Shown: positions 568 through 19,301 of the stretch, one piece after another
Position numbering within the stretch: the stretch's first letter is position 1
Layout: each line of letters begins with the position of its first letter
Sequence record: NC_055709.1
Strand: one strand, 5' to 3'
From: Escherichia phage phiE142
DNA: 64,000 nucleotides
Program-made: the position numbers and the translations under genes
The notes under the pieces: generated by a model
Seen by the model: only the letters and a program-made list of their open reading frames with translations
Database searches by the model: none
Told to the model about the DNA's origin: nothing

Positions 568-3500
568 ATGGCTACTTTAAAACAAATACAATTTAAAAGA
601 AGCAAAACTGCAGGAGCACGTCCTGCCGCTTCAGTATTAGCCGAAGGTGAATTGGCTATAAACTTAAAAGACCGCGTACTTTTTACTAAAGACGACCAAG
701 GAAATATCATTGATCTTGGTTTTGCTAAGGGTGGTAGTATTGACGGGAATGTTATTCATATAGGAAACTATAATCAAACTGGTGATTATACTTTAAATGG
801 CGTCTTCACTCAGACTGGTAATTTTAATTTAACTGGTATTGCTCGAATAACTCGCGATATTATTGCCGCTGGGCAGATTATGACTGAAGGCGGAGAACTT
901 ATTACAAAAAGTTCAGGTACATCACATGTTCGTTTTCATGATTCAGCTGACCGTGAACGTGGAATCATTTTTTCTCCTGCTAATGATGGATTAACTACAC
1001 AAGTAATTAATATTAGAGTTCAAGACTACGCAGCTGGTAGCGAAAGCACCTATGCATTTTCAGGCAGTGGACAATTTATTTCACCTGAAGTATCGGCATG
1101 GAAATCTATGTCAACTCCTCAGATTTTGACTGACAAAGTCATTACAGACGGGAAGAAGGCAGGTGATTATGACATCTATTCATTAGCAAATAATAATTCT
1201 AATACAGATAAAAATAATTTACGTGTTGTACGTACCGACCCAGCGGCCGCAATGCTCCATGAAATTTGTGAAAACAACGGCATCAGTTGGTATTCTGGTT
1301 CAACCCCTACTGATTATATGTTATCTTTTGCTTATTCCGGCGGTTTTCAAGCAGGCCATTCGATTGCAGTAGGTATGGAATCAGGGCCTATGACATATTC
1401 AACCTTAGGTAAAGGTTCTATTGTTCTTGGGGATAATGATACTGGATTTAAATGGCATCAAGACGGATATTATTTCAGCGTTAATAATGGAACAAAAACG
1501 TTTTTATTTAGTCCTAGCGAAACAACTAGCCTAAGAAAATTTGTAGCTGGATATTCTACTAATGGAACCGATTTAACTACTCCTCCAACTGAAAACTATG
1601 CTCTTGCTACTGTTGTGACATATCACGATAATAACGCGTTTGGAGATGGTCAGACTCTTTTGGGATATTATCAAGGCGGTAACTATCATCACTATTTCCG
1701 TGGTAAGGGTACCACAAACATTAATACTCATGGCGGTTTGTTGGTTACTCCTGGTAATATTGATGTTATTGGCGGTTCTGTTAATATAGATGGTAGAAAT
1801 AATTCTTCTACACTAATGTTTAGAGGCAACACAACAGGATACAGCTCGGTTGATAATATGGATATTAAAGTTTGGGGTAATACGTTTGTTGATCCAAGCG
1901 GAGGTATCCGTAAAAACATTATGGAAATTTCTGATGCAACTAGCTGGATGAGCTATATTCAAAGACTTACTACTGGCGAAGTAGAAATGAACGTTAATGG
2001 TTCATTTGAATCATCTGGTGTTACTGCTGGAGATAGAGGAGTTCACACAACAGGTGAAATTTCATCTGGAGCAGTGAATGCTCTTCGTATTTGGAACGCA
2101 GATTATGGAGCCATTTTTAGACGTTCAGAAGGAAGTCTTCATATTATTCCAACTGCTTATGGCGAAGGCAAAGATGGCGATATTGGTCCACTTCGCCCAT
2201 TTAGTATGGCTTTAGATACTGGTAAAGTTACTATTCCAGATTTACAATCAAGTTACAATACGTTCGCTGCTAACGGTTATATTAAATTTGTTGGTCATGG
2301 AGCGGGTGCCGGCGGTTATGACATTCAATATGCTCAAGCGGCTCCTATTTTCCAGGAAATCGATGATGATGCGGTAAGTAAATATTATCCTATTGTTAAG
2401 CAGAAGTTTTTAAACGGTAAATCTGTTTGGTCTTTAGGTACCGAAATTAATTCGGGTACATTCGTTATTCATCATCTGAAAGAAGATGGATCACAAGGCC
2501 ATACATCTCGTTTTAATCAAGACGGCACAGTTAATTTCCCTGATAACGTTCTGGTCGGCGGCGGCGAAGCTGCTATTGCTCGTAATGGTAATATTTTCTC
2601 GGATATCTGGAAAACGTTTACTTCAGCAGGCGACGTAACTAATATTCGCGATGCAATAGCTACTCGTGTTGCTAAAGAAGGTGATACGATGACAGGCCGC
2701 TTAACTCTTAATGCAAACTCTGATGCCATCGTTATTAATAGCACGGCAACCGAATCTGGCTATTTGAAAGGACAAAAAGCAGGCGTTGATAACTGGTATG
2801 TAGGTAATGGTGGTGCTGATAATGCCATATCGTTTTATAGTTTCCAAAATAGATCAGGCATATATGTTAATAATGGTGGTGATATTGCTTTAAACCCAGA
2901 AGGGACCGCCACTTTTAATTTTAATAGGGACCGACTTTATATAAATGGTTCGGTCTGGACCTCACACCAGGCTGGCGATTGGGGAAATCAATGGCGCCAG
3001 GAAGCCCCCGTATTTGTGGATTTTGGCTATGTCGGTAATGATAGTTATTATCCAATTATCAAAGGAAAATCTGTTATTACGAATGAAGGATACGTATCTG
3101 GTGTTGATTTTGGTATGCGCCGTACCACTAACCAATGGGCTCAGGCTATTATCCGTGTTGGTAACCAGGAAAATGCTAGCGATCCACAAGCTATCTATGA
3201 ATTCCACCACAATGGAGTTATGTATGCTCCTAACATGGTACAAACTGGAGCAAGATTATCGGCTGGCGGTGGTGACCCGGTGTGGACTGGACCATGTCTT
3301 GTTATTGGCGATAATGATACTGGATTAGTTCATGGTGGTGACGGCCGAATCAATATGGTTGCCAATGGTATACATATTGCAAACTGGGGAGCAGGCTATC
3401 AATCTCATCCTGGGCTTTGGGATTCAACCGGTGCTTTTTGGACAGAAGTTGGAAGAGCTATCGTTTCTCATGGGCATCTCGTTCAGGCAAATGATAGTTA

Positions 3501-3867
3501 TTCAACGTTTGTCCGTGATGTTTATGTCCGTTCTGATATTCGAGTTAAAAAAGACCTTGTTAAATTTGAAAATGCTTCTCAGAAGCTTTCTAAAATTAAC
3601 GGTTACACTTATATGCAGAAGCGAGGCCTAGATGAAGAAGGCAATCAGAAATGGGAACCTAACGCCGGTTTAATTGCTCAAGAAGTTCAAGCTATTTTGC
3701 CAGAATTAGTTGAAGGTGACCCGGATGGTGAAGCTTTACTTCGTTTGAACTATAACGGTGTAATTGGTTTAAATACAGCTGCAATCAATGAGCATACTGC
3801 AGAAATTGCAGAACTTAAGTCAGAGATTGAAGAGCTTAAAGCATTAGTTAAATCATTGTTAAAATAA
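568..3867 (+). CDS. 37: Long tail fibre large distal subunit gp37 with C-terminal intramolecular-chaperone-like domain
   Basis: 1099-aa ORF; [10 protein letters not shown] fibre motif; C-terminal ~110 aa (NGYTY...[15 protein letters not shown]...coiled coil) resemble self-cleaving chaperone domains of tail fibres; followed by gp38. Confidence 0.9.
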
Positions 3868-5362: not shown

Positions 5363-5635
5363 TTATTTGTTTGTATACATCTCTAGATATCGATATACAC
5401 CCTCAAAACCCTCGTTGAATTCGTCGATGAGGGTTTTCTTATCTTCTTGGGTTAATTCAGAAACAATTTTACGGAATGAATTCTGATTTAATTTTCTACC
5501 TTCATGCGTTACTCCAATCTCATTCAGAAATGCAATAAAATTAGCACGATTCTCAACAATATCTTCTCTGGAAAATTTAATCAAAATAGACGCAACAGTA
5601 ATAATTTCACGAACTGTATCAATGTTTTTATTCAT
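5363..5635 (-). CDS. asiA: Anti-sigma70 factor AsiA
   Basis: 90 aa MNKNIDTVREIITVASILIKFSREDIVENRANF... matches T4 AsiA from memory. Confidence 0.9.
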   Translation of the reverse strand: MNKNIDTVREIITVASILIKFSREDIVENRANFIAFLNEIGVTHEGRKLNQNSFRKIVSELTQEDKKTLIDEFNEGFEGVYRYLEMYTNK

Positions 5636-5647
5636 TAACTATACCAC

Positions 5648-5800
5648 TCAATTAGTTGACTTTATTATAATATCATCAGACACTTGATTTGTAAACTGGT
5701 CTGTGTTATTTTCTTCAAAAATTTTTTCTACGAATTCCTTGAACGACTCACGTTCTTGAGCTACATTGTGCTCGATTACCTTTTCAAGATTATGACTCAT
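5648..5800 (-). CDS. Hypothetical small protein (50 aa)
   Basis: ATG-initiated ORF filling the asiA-arn gap, start overlaps arn stop (ATGA); not in ORF track because under 60 aa. Confidence 0.35.
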   Translation of the reverse strand: MSHNLEKVIEHNVAQERESFKEFVEKIFEENNTDQFTNQVSDDIIIKSTN

Positions 5801-6075
5801 TCGAAATAATCTTCAATTTCATAATCATGGACATAAATCATTATAGTTTTTAATACATCATCAATACTTTTTCCTGGAGCTGGAATTACGTAAAAATATC
5901 CTGCTTTTGAGAGGTCTTTATAAGTTCCAATCAAGAAATCATTATTCTCGAGATGTAGTTCTTCAACTAATTCATTAACAATTGAGTGGTATAAATTTGG
6001 TAGAAACTTATATAGCTTTTCTAGAATATCAATTTTGATTGTGTATTGAACCACAGACTGAGAATCAATAATCAT
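5797..6075 (-). CDS. arn: Arn-like anti-restriction protein (McrBC inhibitor)
   Basis: 92-aa acidic protein at the T4 arn position between asiA and motA. Confidence 0.65.
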   Translation of the reverse strand: MIIDSQSVVQYTIKIDILEKLYKFLPNLYHSIVNELVEELHLENNDFLIGTYKDLSKAGYFYVIPAPGKSIDDVLKTIMIYVHDYEIEDYFE

Positions 6076-6158
6076 AGACCTTCCCCTTATGTTTCTGTTT
6101 GCGATTAGATTCTTTAAACGCTTTCTTCTTATCCTTATGAACAGAAGCTTTATTAAAA

Positions 6159-6377
6159 TTATGCTTTGCGACTAAATTGTTCATAGTGCTGAATTACCTC
6201 TCTCAAACATTTGCATGTGAATGAAAACTTTTTAGCTACACCACATTCAAATATGTGTTCTCTTAAATCACGTGTATCGGTATATCCCATCTCAACAATA
6301 AAATGCCGTATTAGATTTTTATCTTTATCATTGAGAGAATTAAAATAATCAGATTTTGAATTAATTTCCCTGGCCAA
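6159..6377 (-). CDS. Hypothetical early protein (72 aa, Cys-containing)
   Basis: ORF in arn-motA interval; no recognisable motif. Confidence 0.45.
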   Translation of the reverse strand: MAREINSKSDYFNSLNDKDKNLIRHFIVEMGYTDTRDLREHIFECGVAKKFSFTCKCLREVIQHYEQFSRKA

Positions 6378-15540: not shown

Positions 15541-16641
15541 TTACGCTGTGAAGATTTTATCCCACATCGCAACAACTGCATCTCGGTTATACTTCTTCCA
15601 TACTGCTTCAGCACGTTTAACTCGAGCTTCGTACGTGTCAGTGAATTCTAATACAGCTTTTGTGTAAAGCGCAACTACTTCTTTCTTAGGAGTAGAGGAA
15701 TCAATTTCTACACGCACAGTATCTGGGTCATATTCGAATGTCGCATGCGGATAATCCTTAAAAACTAACTGAATTACAGGGACACCTTTAGAAATGGCTT
15801 CAATAGAACTATTCTCTACCGTACCTGTGTCAGGACACGTATTAATAAGTGCTTTAGCTGTTTTAAGACGTTCCATAATTTCACTGTGTGGAGCATCAAT
15901 AATAACAGGATACTTAGCCGGTGGTGCCCATTTGCTTGGACAATAACCAATACCATTTTCGCCTAGTGCTTTAATCGCTTCAAGAGCAACATCAGTACGA
16001 CGCATTTTAGTGTCATAACGTTGTGCACTAATAATCAGATCAGTCGCCGGAAGAACTTCAGGTTTCTCATTCAAACAAATAACCGGATAATCTTCGGCTT
16101 CAAACAACGGATTTGCTCGCCAATAATCATAATCAATTTTGTCAGTCAGACCTGAAGTCATATAACAATATTTGCGTTCAAATTCACGGAAGGCTTTAGT
16201 AGGAGCATAACTCTTACCACCGTTCTTATGAATTTGAATAGTCTGGTCCCAAATTTGAACAATGCCACGAGATACCGGTTCAAATGGTGTTGCCATAAAA
16301 TTCTTATGAACTTTAGAGAGGCCCGCGTCTTTAATTGCCTGAACAGTTAGTTTGGTCGGTTCCATTGTAACAACGAAATCGTACTCATTAATGCCGGCTA
16401 GTTCAACAATCTTACGAGCCATAGTATAACTCATACCTAGACTGAATTTAGTCAGATGACCAACAGGATGATGATTAACCTTCCAATCACCAAATGTGTC
16501 ATTATCAAAACCGATATAATCAATATCGGCACCGATAGAAACTAAATATTTCAACACATTTAAATGTACTGCTTCAAGACCACCTTGTACACGTTCAGGA
16601 TTAAATGGGACTGCACGAGATGGGATAAACATAACTTTCAT
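15541..16641 (-). CDS. GT-B fold glycosyltransferase (GT4-like), candidate DNA sugar transferase
   Basis: 366 aa; N-terminal MKVMFIPSR...GGLEAVHLNVLKYL and C-terminal ENSSIEAISKGVPVIQ resemble GT4 donor-binding motifs; located between rIIA.1 and gene 39. Confidence 0.7.
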   Translation of the reverse strand: MKVMFIPSRAVPFNPERVQGGLEAVHLNVLKYLVSIGADIDYIGFDNDTFGDWKVNHHPVGHLTKFSLGMSYTMARKIVELAGINEYDFVVTMEPTKLTVQAIKDAGLSKVHKNFMATPFEPVSRGIVQIWDQTIQIHKNGGKSYAPTKAFREFERKYCYMTSGLTDKIDYDYWRANPLFEAEDYPVICLNEKPEVLPATDLIISAQRYDTKMRRTDVALEAIKALGENGIGYCPSKWAPPAKYPVIIDAPHSEIMERLKTAKALINTCPDTGTVENSSIEAISKGVPVIQLVFKDYPHATFEYDPDTVRVEIDSSTPKKEVVALYTKAVLEFTDTYEARVKRAEAVWKKYNRDAVVAMWDKIFTA

Positions 16642-16650
16642 AATTAAGCC

Positions 16651-16685
16651 TTATTAAAATTAAAATGAAGCTCCCGAAGGAGCTT
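16651..16685 (-). terminator. Terminator-like hairpin
   Basis: Minus strand AAGCTCCTTCGGGAGCTT followed by CATTTTAATTTTAAT, overlapping the HNH gene stop. Confidence 0.5.
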
Positions 16686-17496
16686 AGGACATCCAACACA
16701 TTTTATAACCTTTGCAGGTTCTGTTAGGATTATTTAATGCTTTCAATATATTAGAAGACCCTATACCTAAATACTCCCTTAATTCATAAAGATAGTTAAA
16801 ATCAATAGTTTCACCTGTTTTTACACTTGTGATTCTTATAGGCCTTCTTTCATATTTAGATTTATACAACTCTCTAGTCTTAGCTTTAGTTTCTTCTGAC
16901 CTAGGAGTGTATGGTTTAAATCCTTTTGTTTTAAATGTTTCCATTCTTGATTTAGTTATTTTATCCTGATGTTCTTTTGTTTTTACAGGTGCTTTTCGCC
17001 CATTCTCCCAAGATAACTTGTTGGCCTGTATTATTTTATCTATTGCTTCTTGCGTATGAGTTTTACCATAAAATGGATTTAATTCGCCTATACGTTGTGA
17101 AGCAATATGTGACATTAATTCTCTTGTTGCTTTAGTATGTTTTTTACCTTTAAATGGGTTGCCATTTTTAGCAATCCATTCTTTCATAAATCTAGAGTGC
17201 TCTTTAGAGAATTCTTGTTTAAGCCAATCATAATCTCTAGAATTTCTAGCTCCTATGTAAAAAGCTCTAATAGCCATAAGCATAGAACGGTTCTTATGAA
17301 TTTTATAAAGCAATAAATGGGCGATAAAATGCTCTCTAGGGGTCATTTTAACTAGATTTGATTTAGCATTACTCCCGCCCATAGATTTAGGCAAAATATG
17401 GTGAGTTTCAGTATAATTAGGAATAGTGCTGCGGTTTTTAGCCGCAGCGATAAGTTTATCATAAATTTTACGATAATTCATTATCCTAGCATCCAA
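16684..17496 (-). CDS. HNH homing endonuclease with NUMOD3 repeats
   Basis: ETHHILPKSMGGSNAKSNLVKMTPREHFIAH HNH motif plus two NPF.GK.HT....L repeats; overlaps the end of gene 39. Confidence 0.8.
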   Translation of the reverse strand: MDARIMNYRKIYDKLIAAAKNRSTIPNYTETHHILPKSMGGSNAKSNLVKMTPREHFIAHLLLYKIHKNRSMLMAIRAFYIGARNSRDYDWLKQEFSKEHSRFMKEWIAKNGNPFKGKKHTKATRELMSHIASQRIGELNPFYGKTHTQEAIDKIIQANKLSWENGRKAPVKTKEHQDKITKSRMETFKTKGFKPYTPRSEETKAKTRELYKSKYERRPIRITSVKTGETIDFNYLYELREYLGIGSSNILKALNNPNRTCKGYKMCWMS

Positions 17497-19301
17497 TCTT
17501 TACGGAGTTCAGGGTCGTTACCCATGAGCATTTCAAATAGTTCTTTCCAATTTTCAGGAAGTTTAACTACGTCGTACACAGGGTTTTGAATCATTTCTTT
17601 ATATTCATCTCGCTGAAGTGAGCCCAATCCCTTGATGTATCGAATACTATGCTTAGGAAGCGTATCTTTAGCTTCTTCATACTCAGCTACAGTATAAAAC
17701 CATTTTTGAGATTTGCCAATTTGTGCAATAATTACAGGTGTTTTAACAAAGCGAATACGTCCTTGTTCAAACAATTCAGGCCAATTACTAAAGAAAGCAA
17801 GCAAAGCCGGATAGATACTTCCAAGACCGTCATGATCGGCATCGGTCATAATTGCAATATTACGATAGTTCGTATTCTCTGCCTTTTCACCAAGAATAAG
17901 ACCTGTGATAGCACAGATATCGAATAACTCTTTGTTCTTCATCATATCAGCATATGACATACCCCAGCTATTCATCACCTTACCACGTAATGGGAATCCG
18001 CCGTGTAGTTCACGGTCACGAACATCAATGAGATATCCAATTGCCGAATCACCTTCTGTTAAGAACAATGTCGTATCTGCATCTTTACCGCATTGGTTAG
18101 CTTTAATATGCTTATGAACCTTAGCTTTAGTTGCCTTTTTAGCTGCTTTAGTTTCTGCAGCCTTTTCTGCTGCCAATTTACGAGCTAATGCTGCTTCAAC
18201 AATAGGCATAATCAAGGATTCGTTTTTAAGAAGTGCCTGAGCAATTTTCTTAGCATCTAATTGGATATGATTACGAATATCACCATACGTTGACGTTAAA
18301 CGTTCTTTAGTCTGAGAATCAAAACGCATGTTGCTCATGTCTCTAATAAACATCAACATTGTGAGGCATTCTTTAACACGAGCTTTAGTGACTTCAATAC
18401 CCTTATATTTCTTTTTAATACCCGGCAAAAGATGTTCGCAGATATCATCCATTACACATTCAACATGATGACCACCATTTTTAGTATGGATGTTATTCAC
18501 ATAAGTTAAATGACGGAAGCCATCTGGTGATGTTGTGAATGCTATAGAGACTTTATCATTTTCTTGAATGATGTTATCTTCACCAAATTGTTTAGCAAAT
18601 CGTTTAAAATTACCATCAACCTTTTTACCATTAAATGTGAACTTGATATCAGGATAAACGACTGCCAATGTTTGAAGTCGGTCTAAAGTAATATCTAAAT
18701 AAATTTGAGATAAATTATGCTCTTCAAATGAAGTGAAATCAGGAGTGAAGATTACTTTAGTGCCTTTACCTTTAGATTTCTTAGAAGACCATGATTTGTT
18801 TTCCATTCCGTTTGAACAGTTAACAGTGATTTCATTTTCGCCATCTGACGTGATGCCTGTAAACAACGTAGAGAAGATATTAGTTAAACTACTCCCGACG
18901 CCGTTCATACCACCAGTCTTGCGTTCAGAATCATCACCAAAGTTACCACCGGCCTTTGGAATAGTCCAGGCTGCTACAGGACCAGGAATTTGTTCACCTG
19001 TTTGGTCGGTAACTAAACCTTGAGGAATACCACGTCCGTTATCTTCCACCGAAACTTGATTATTTTTAATTTGCACATCAATTTTATTTGCAAACTTAAA
19101 TGATGTACGAATAGCTTCATCAACCGAGTTGTCAATAATCTCATCGATTAATTTAACCAGACCAGGAACATATTCAACTTGTTGATATTTACCAAACAAA
19201 AAACGCTCGTGGGCTTCTTTAGCAGAAGAACCAATATACATGCCACTACGTTTCTTAATATGTTCTACATCTGACAGTACCTTAATTTCATTTTTAATCA
19301 T
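17481..19301 (-). CDS. 39: DNA topoisomerase II large subunit gp39 (unsplit, T2-type)
   Basis: 606 aa GyrB-like ATPase and TOPRIM regions; single ORF rather than the T4 39/60 split. Confidence 0.9.
   Translation of the reverse strand: MIKNEIKVLSDVEHIKKRSGMYIGSSAKEAHERFLFGKYQQVEYVPGLVKLIDEIIDNSVDEAIRTSFKFANKIDVQIKNNQVSVEDNGRGIPQGLVTDQTGEQIPGPVAAWTIPKAGGNFGDDSERKTGGMNGVGSSLTNIFSTLFTGITSDGENEITVNCSNGMENKSWSSKKSKGKGTKVIFTPDFTSFEEHNLSQIYLDITLDRLQTLAVVYPDIKFTFNGKKVDGNFKRFAKQFGEDNIIQENDKVSIAFTTSPDGFRHLTYVNNIHTKNGGHHVECVMDDICEHLLPGIKKKYKGIEVTKARVKECLTMLMFIRDMSNMRFDSQTKERLTSTYGDIRNHIQLDAKKIAQALLKNESLIMPIVEAALARKLAAEKAAETKAAKKATKAKVHKHIKANQCGKDADTTLFLTEGDSAIGYLIDVRDRELHGGFPLRGKVMNSWGMSYADMMKNKELFDICAITGLILGEKAENTNYRNIAIMTDADHDGLGSIYPALLAFFSNWPELFEQGRIRFVKTPVIIAQIGKSQKWFYTVAEYEEAKDTLPKHSIRYIKGLGSLQRDEYKEMIQNPVYDVVKLPENWKELFEMLMGNDPELRKDWMLG

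Follow-up and report, generated by a model that had tools for sequence, protein, structure and literature searches.

A putative homing endonuclease gene in the last codons of phage topoisomerase gene 39 and its movement between Mosigvirus and Tequatrovirus

The MobA elements of the T4-like topoisomerase gene insert only at codons ~466-491, where they split the gene into 39 and 60 (Bonocora et al. 2011, as summarized in bioRxiv 10.1101/2022.08.31.505936). They add tails of ~44 amino acids (aa) and always carry a bypass sequence of 50 nucleotides (nt) (Manning and Atkins, bioRxiv 10.1101/2022.08.31.505936). Their C-terminal regions are essentially confined to MobA, with 31-58% identity between clades, and the survey of topoisomerase elements by Manning and Atkins describes none at the 3′ end of the gene (bioRxiv 10.1101/2022.08.31.505936). 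Here, we describe an element at that end, in a stretch of 64,000 nt from Escherichia phage phiE142 (NC_055709.1; hereafter the window, with positions counted from its first letter), in which an HNH endonuclease gene occupies the last codons of an unsplit gene 39, the gene for the large subunit of DNA topoisomerase II. The region is 100% identical across 4.3 kb to Escherichia phage phiC120 (NC_055718; Mosigvirus, RB69-like), and owing to this match the 'phiC120' allele in all comparisons with relatives is the sequence of the window. Close relatives are polymorphic for the element, and flanking sequence has accompanied it from one genus to another. We consider it likely, with good confidence, that it is a free-standing and promoter-less homing endonuclease gene of the Mob type, and that it belongs to a separate subfamily specialized for the very 3′ end of the topoisomerase gene. 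Its product adds an uncharacterized member, or arguably a subfamily, to a well-known class of nucleases, and it has already been annotated in phiC120: RefSeq labels the open reading frame (ORF) 'homing endonuclease', and the phiC120 genome paper gives one sentence to it as ORF 117, naming its NUMOD3 domain (PMC8022965).

The element resembles several described systems in part. As with the MobA element, the host gene encodes the large subunit of topoisomerase II, the upstream frame overlaps at its end with the nuclease ORF, substitute coding keeps the host protein functional, and presence is polymorphic with an apparently recent spread; the HNH domains are 61% identical over 71 aa. Unlike the MobA element, it lies at codon 604, changes the last residue(s) only, has no bypass and encodes NUMOD3 repeats. 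With MobE and the other free-standing Mob endonucleases of T-even phages it shares the lack of a promoter, the position at a conserved-gene junction and the start-stop overlap (PMC2988022), as well as the fusion of an HNH domain to a variable C-terminal DNA-binding region; in both, the adjoining conserved gene would be expected to be nicked and flanking markers to be co-converted as a result. Nevertheless, MobE targets nrdB, the C-terminal regions are unrelated, and the present nuclease reuses the displaced stop codon of its host gene. The nearest predicted fold is that of I-HmuI (PDB 1U3E), an HNH nicking endonuclease of Bacillus phage SPO1, and the predicted model contains the beta-beta-alpha fold that defines the HNH superfamily. 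I-HmuI differs in being 16% identical, in being intron-encoded within a DNA polymerase gene and in lacking NUMOD3 repeats of the present type.

An insertion within the final two codons of gene 39

Gene 39 of the window (17481..19301, minus strand) is a single ORF of 606 aa. Its product matches the Pfam families HATPase_c (GHKL ATPase), DNA_gyraseB, Toprim and TOPRIM_C, and it is colinear from end to end with T4 gp39 (aa 1-474, 79% identity) followed by gp60 (aa 473-604). The gene holds no MobA-type insert, and a blastn-short search of the window for the 50-nt bypass sequence returned chance matches of 9-12 nt only. Gene 39 is thus unsplit and of the T2 type, as had been concluded in an earlier note on this DNA. 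The position of the nuclease gene was established by alignment with the empty-site alleles of O157 typing phage 3, NHEP36, AlbertHofmann and RB69. These end in ...CGT AAA GA(A/T) TGG ATG TCC TAA, directly followed by the hairpin GCTCCTTCGGGAGC, with the gene 39 terminus TGGATGTCCTAA sitting immediately 5′ of it. The phiC120 allele reads ...GAT TGG ATG / CTA GGA TAA TG AAT ... TGT TGG ATG / TCC TAA GCTCC..., which reveals an insertion of 800 bp (CTAGGATAATGAAT...TGTTGGATG; 16690..17489, minus strand) bounded by the 7-nt direct repeat TTGGATG (17496-17490 and 16696-16690, minus strand) and falling within the final two codons of gene 39, at codon 604. The element supplies a gene 39 end of its own, CTA GGA TAA, so that Ser-stop is swapped for Leu-Gly-stop (17481..17489, minus strand). 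The nuclease ORF in turn reads out of the element and ends on TCC TAA, the former final codon and stop of gene 39, now displaced (16684..16689, minus strand).

The earlier note had described an insertion next to gene 39 without disruption of the gene. The nuclease gene does abut gene 39, but the empty alleles place the insertion inside its last two codons; and the absence of disruption is right in effect, as the gene is kept functional, although its C-terminus is now encoded by the element. The host gene is spared more simply than in the MobA elements, by the rewriting of two codons and the reuse of the old stop, and for annotation this means that the C-terminus of gene 39 is partly element-derived in carrier phages. 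The same note had put the site in the neighbourhood where T4 carries mobA, which holds only loosely: codon 604 lies ~400 nt downstream of codons ~466-491. Likewise, the alignment with T4 mobA and the gene 39-60 region that it proposed brings out the colinearity with gp39 and gp60 and a similar HNH domain, but the rest of MobA is unrelated: residues 1-71 of the nuclease are 61% identical to the intact MobA of RB59 (E 9e-25), and beyond residue 71 BLASTP finds no significant similarity between the nuclease and MobA. Orthology with MobA was rejected, since the HNH domain alone is similar and both the site and the C-terminal region differ.

The two elements can also occur side by side. In the Tequatrovirus phage CJY920 (PQ349265, 1670-3795) an intact MobA, 99% identical to that of RB59, and an exact copy of the T4 50-nt bypass (2607-2656) are followed by a phiC120-type endonuclease gene (3001-3795) after gene 60, so that one topoisomerase gene contains two Mob elements 516 nt apart. 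The presence of both in one phage indicates that MobA and the present element are independent and have different targets, and the last codons of gene 39 would be a second, independent Mob-type site in the T-even topoisomerase gene, besides that of MobA and the bypass.

The mechanically called nuclease ORF (17496-16684, minus strand) begins at a TTG, encodes 270 aa and overlaps the end of gene 39 by five codons. A start at the ATG at 17481, giving 265 aa (16684..17481, minus strand), is more likely: this ATG is the start annotated in NC_055718, its A is shared with the stop of gene 39 (TAATG), and a Shine-Dalgarno-like AGGA lies 2 nt 5′ of it. From this start the protein comprises an HNH domain (aa 1-75; 17481-17257), two NUMOD3 repeats (aa ~105-151; 17169-17029), matched by the NUMOD3 model at E 4.6e-9, and a small C-terminal strand-and-helix domain of predicted DNA-binding type (aa ~210-265; 16854-16687), all on the minus strand; PHROG 655, 'homing endonuclease', matches the protein at E 4.6e-54. 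The HNH motif, ETHHILPKSMGG...SNLV...REHFIAH, aligns with that of McrA. The residues of the HNH pattern are H27-H28, N42, H51 and H55 (HH...N...H), of which N42, H51 and H55 are invariant across 42 homologues and H27/H28 are at least 90% conserved. The loss of catalytic residues, which would have spoken against the first description of this gene, is therefore not seen on alignment, and the view that an HNH endonuclease with NUMOD3 repeats begins within the last codons of gene 39 is borne out by the ATG on TAATG, the two NUMOD3 matches and the HNH residues.

Concerning expression, the late-promoter consensus TATAAATA is absent from the region and its surroundings, its only two copies in the window being far off, and a scan of the region for sigma-70-type promoters gave no excess over chance. 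The nuclease ORF looks like a promoter-less cassette that would be read from gene 39 transcripts via stop-start coupling; several T4 Mob and Seg genes are promoter-less cassettes (PMC2988022). Control of the start by an RNA hairpin was considered and rejected, as the fold of the 101 nt around the ATG was not significant (z = -1.39). A terminator-like hairpin with a T-rich run, AAGCTCC-TTCG-GGAGCTT (16658..16685, minus strand, from a terminator scan; the hairpin itself spans 16685-16668), lies 3′ of the nuclease ORF. It is native to the spacer downstream of gene 39 in Mosigvirus, being present in the empty-site alleles.

Movement between genera with flanking sequence

At ≥98% identity, the 798-nt ORF is present in 26 of 50,697 phage records, every one of them with the ORF at this gene 39 site. 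The carriers are 18 Mosigvirus records (15 phages) and eight Tequatrovirus records (six phages: fPS-90, F1, FN, FL12, BYEP01 and CJY920), and five of the Tequatrovirus carriers were fetched for comparison. About 128 related Mosigvirus records, RB69 included, match in two pieces without the ORF, with a clean empty site and identical flanks; the ORF is found in ~12% of Mosigvirus records and in a handful of Tequatrovirus records.

Sliding identity and the positions of differences delimit a segment of ~1.3 kb (16595..17896, minus strand) that is ~99% common to the window and Tequatrovirus carriers such as fPS-90. The element and the spacer are included, together with ~415 nt from the end of gene 39 on one side and 47 nt of a homologue of RB69 ORF003c on the other; outside it, phiC120 and the Tequatrovirus carriers are 63-84% identical or unrelated. 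Compared per 100 nt, gene 39 of phiC120 and that of fPS-90 are 63-84% identical to nt ~1400 and 94-100% identical thereafter, with differences dense through nt 1405 and eight after that, and the nuclease ORFs are 99-100% identical. On the right side, the Tequatrovirus carriers have the Mosigvirus spacer and hairpin and then the first 47 nt of the neighbouring 366-aa gene (16641-16595), which join at AATCCTGA to CCTTCGTAAAGAATGGATGAGCCAGTAG, the leftover final 28 nt of the native Tequatrovirus gene 39. The join lies at the microhomology AAT(C/G)CTGA and is the same in all five fetched carriers, as is the presence of the hairpin, which entered Tequatrovirus along with the element; the sequence diagnostic of this cross-genus junction is AATCCTGACCTTCG.

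The origin of the 47-nt fragment gives the direction of the transfer. The 366-aa ORF (15541..16641, minus strand) is 98.9% identical to RB69 ORF003c, a candidate hydroxymethylcytosine (hmC) arabinosyltransferase (PMC6024577), a candidacy that also comes from the AlphaHofmann-series annotation in phage AlbertHofmann; the ORF has no Pfam match, and its PHROG match, 8302, is of a function not known. Apart from the fragment in the carriers, Tequatroviruses have no ORF003c homologue, so the transfer ran from Mosigvirus to Tequatrovirus. The single right junction in all five fetched carriers indicates one entry into Tequatrovirus. The left crossover varies: it lies at nt ~1410 of gene 39 in fPS-90, F1 and BYEP01 and at nt ~1457 in FL12, and in CJY920 it falls downstream of the bypass. 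This variation indicates later spread by recombination within Tequatrovirus.

Phages without the endonuclease bear traces of the same process. The Shigella phage SP21535 (PQ615101), an endonuclease-free Tequatrovirus, has patches of Mosigvirus-like sequence alternating with native sequence between nt ~1416 and ~1747 of gene 39, followed by the native tail and an empty site. These patches look like conversion without inheritance of the element, or like its later loss. The endonuclease-free Mosigvirus AlbertHofmann is likewise a mosaic with patches of the element-linked tract. As in the co-conversion of the Mob class, the element took ~415 nt of gene 39 along, the left ends vary and patches occur in endonuclease-free phages. 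Judged from the sequences, the junctions and patches together have the standard footprint of break-stimulated conversion, with homologous exchange on the left and a microhomology join on the right. The prediction of the earlier note that gene 39 of endonuclease-free relatives is the probable target of the nuclease finds support in the ~128 records without the ORF, the 99% identity of the element across genera and the flanks carried with it.

In the carriers, a divergent tract that we call type B, defined by difference positions and allele alignments, occupies the ~130 nt of gene 39 that precede the insertion (nt 1677-1806; 17496..17625, minus strand). Between phiC120 and O157 typing phage 3, 28 of the 130 positions in this tract differ, as compared with 20 differences in the first 1600 nt of the gene; the amino-acid changes are EKS to QRD, R to K, DDS to NDP and E to D. 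The tract in endonuclease-free Mosigvirus phages (type A) agrees with that of the Tequatrovirus PST, which indicates that the type B state of the carriers is derived or foreign. Among the metagenomic carriers described below, the gp39 tails have type B-like residues as well (QR, GND and KDWM), which suggests a foreign donor. The type B tract is probably flanking sequence that was brought in with the element from outside, and it probably holds an altered target site, with substitutions that protect the carriers; SP21535 shares type B patches in the interval given above.

These features are consistent with the following course of events. Transcripts of gene 39 would extend over the nuclease ORF, with stop-start coupling at TAATG allowing its low-level translation. 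On co-infection with an endonuclease-free relative, the monomeric nuclease would use its NUMOD3 helices and C-terminal domain to bind an extended site within the final ~60 bp of that relative's gene 39, and the HNH domain would nick or cut close by. Recombination-dependent repair, as practised by T-even phages, would then copy the element and the adjacent gene 39 sequence from the carrier genome, whose own site, interrupted by the insertion and altered by the many substitutions of the type B tract, would escape cleavage. Where the donor offers no downstream homology, the right join would form at microhomology and leave duplicated remnants of the native gene 39 tail.

The RB69-like and T4-like groups have been reported not to exchange DNA, and general recombination between RB69 and T4 is reported to be ineffective (PMC6024577). 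The most interesting aspect of the locus is its explicit trace of transfer from a lineage with arabinosyl-hmC to one with glucosyl-hmC. We regard as evenly balanced the broader proposal that the element was the vehicle of DNA transfer from arabinosyl-hmC Mosigvirus to glucosyl-hmC Tequatrovirus and belongs to an undescribed Mob subfamily anciently fixed at the last codons of the topoisomerase gene. If the nuclease did drive the transfer, it must recognize and cut its site in differently hypermodified DNA, and homing endonucleases would be a route by which sequence of an essential replication gene crosses an incipient species barrier; the transferred segment includes a piece of the candidate arabinosyltransferase gene. 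The series of empty, carrier, mosaic and scar alleles, together with the cross-genus copy, offers a ready system for mapping the target, and the same alleles are suited to testing an HNH enzyme on arabinosyl-hmC versus glucosyl-hmC DNA and to the study of gene flow between RB69-like and T4-like phages.

Possible decay and loss of the element

Several findings weigh against an active homing endonuclease with the history given above. Pfam HNH models did not match the nuclease protein at E 0.01, and a PDB sequence search returned a single weak match, to McrA (E 0.37). The C-terminal residues GYKMCWMS diverge from the subfamily motif GFKWKY, because the nuclease ORF runs into the remnant of gene 39, and such an ending could impair DNA binding. 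The seven element copies compared, with at most five differences in 798 nt, are too alike to show a sign of purifying selection. The copies in AV118 and ECO111 5-P are 799 and 797 nt long and their tblastn matches are split, so that decay has begun or the records contain sequencing errors. The record of CJY920, with its two Mob elements, is marked UNVERIFIED. Finally, NHEP36 has a clean empty site and yet bears the type B tract. Its type B tract could be an older Mosigvirus allele and not co-converted donor sequence, and its state may reflect precise loss of the element across the 7-nt repeat or a type B tract that predates the insertion.

Loss is also suggested by a scar allele of 19 nt without an endonuclease, found in six Mosigvirus records (LF82-4, CCU7, TH12, OLB35, phiEC1 and TH58). 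These have the type B tract and Leu-Gly-stop (CTT GGT TAA), then TTGATA before GATGTCCTAA; in LF82-4 the scar CTTGGTTAATTGATA and the displaced tail lie at 2943-3000. The scar agrees with the 5′ end of the element at ten of 14 positions, and the four mismatches show that it is not a recent deletion of the present element copy; it may be a remnant of an older element variant or have another origin. Gain, decay and loss of the element all seem to be represented among the relatives.

Taken at face value, the divergent C-terminal residues, the one-base length changes in two copies, the scar allele and the low frequency of the ORF in both genera would fit an inactive relic of a homing endonuclease, spread passively by ordinary T-even recombination while hitch-hiking on gene 39. 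We consider this unlikely, since the catalytic residues are intact and the ORF is of full length in 24 of the 26 records. Furthermore, 99% identity across genera inside a gene that is otherwise 63-84% identical points to a very recent and locally stimulated transfer, a microhomology join across the RB69/T4 recombination barrier (PMC6024577) is the expected product of break repair, and the endonuclease-free neighbours contain patchy conversion tracts.

Relatives at the topoisomerase gene 3′ end and neighbouring genes

Relatives over the full length of the nuclease were found in a large protein collection. Three proteins (P0002, P0003 and P0004), with 41-45% identity over 98-100% of the length, share homology with the nuclease that includes the C-terminal region, and all three are encoded directly after an unsplit topoisomerase large-subunit gene in different T4-like metagenomic lineages. 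The stop and start codons overlap in two of the three metagenomic relatives: as GTGA on contig L016 (Logan SRR21291448), in which a GTG start overlaps the topoisomerase TGA stop, and as ATGA on contig L020, whose topoisomerase is 43% identical to that of phiC120. On contig L019 (Logan ERR12350093) a 34-nt spacer separates the topoisomerase and endonuclease genes. The 80 best generic HNH relatives in IMG/VR served as a control: no gp39 homologue lies near any of them, and none is a full-length relative, the match being to the HNH/NUMOD3 part only. Among phage genomes, the next full-length relatives have ~30-36% identity and are found beside primase, helicase and nrdA genes. Two further proteins (P0005 and P0006; 39-40% identity, 77% coverage) were considered as members of the subfamily and rejected, as their PrkA/DUF444/SpoVR-type neighbours indicate that they have other targets.

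The metagenomic junctions also bear on the target site. The nuclease ORF on L016 ends inside a leftover native tail, CTTCGTAAAGAGTGGATGAATCAATAG (LRKEWMNQ-stop), and at three independent junctions (Mosigvirus, Tequatrovirus and L016) the start of the retained native remnant falls inside the conserved motif CTTCGTAAAGA(A/G)TGGATG or shortly before it. We infer from these positions that the break would fall at or just upstream of CTTCGTAAAGA(A/G)TGGATG. Recognition would reach further upstream, since the intact remnants in the Tequatrovirus and L016 carriers would otherwise be self-targets.

The retention of this position in at least four divergent lineages, as well as a target within a replication gene, could be taken to mean that the nuclease is kept for the benefit of the phage, by excluding rival T-even genomes through cuts in their essential topoisomerase gene or by modulating gene 39 expression, with homing as a by-product; T-even endonucleases do cause marker exclusion of relatives (PMC2988022). 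However, most close relatives lack the nuclease, decay and loss alleles are present, and sporadic occurrence combined with co-conversion is the usual mark of a selfish element. The protein has no extra domain, there is no significant RNA structure around its start and no other sign of a second function was seen, so that we think this explanation highly improbable and retain that of a Mob-type homing endonuclease.

Other features were observed around these genes. The spacer on L019 (4966-5001) contains a potential hairpin, GGAGGGAGGATA-TTTC-TATCCTCC, which would sequester the Shine-Dalgarno sequence; sequestration by such a hairpin is a translational control device of other T4 endonuclease genes. 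On L016, an ORF of 235 aa with an Endonuclease_7 domain (1144-1851) lies immediately upstream of gene 39, so that nuclease genes stand on both sides of the topoisomerase gene. Phage AV115 (OR352945) has an extra ORF of 227 aa (5598-6281, minus strand) with three NUMOD3 matches, which overlaps the start of gene 39 and also occurs in AV109, AV114, AV116 and AV118. In this group, gene 39 is 61-81% identical to that of phiC120 over the first ~1100 nt and 96-100% identical thereafter, and the extra ORF probably represents another homing endonuclease gene, which would occupy the 5′ end of gene 39 and have a conversion tract of its own.

In the window, the order of transcription, all on the minus strand, is gene 39, the HNH ORF, the 366-aa ORF, rIIA.1 (15448-15248) and rIIA (15235-13022). 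The phiC120 record NC_055718, marked circular, has 186,570 bp and exceeds its close Mosigvirus relatives (~167-170 kb) by ~17-18 kb, an extra size that possibly stems from terminal redundancy in the assembly or from additional content.

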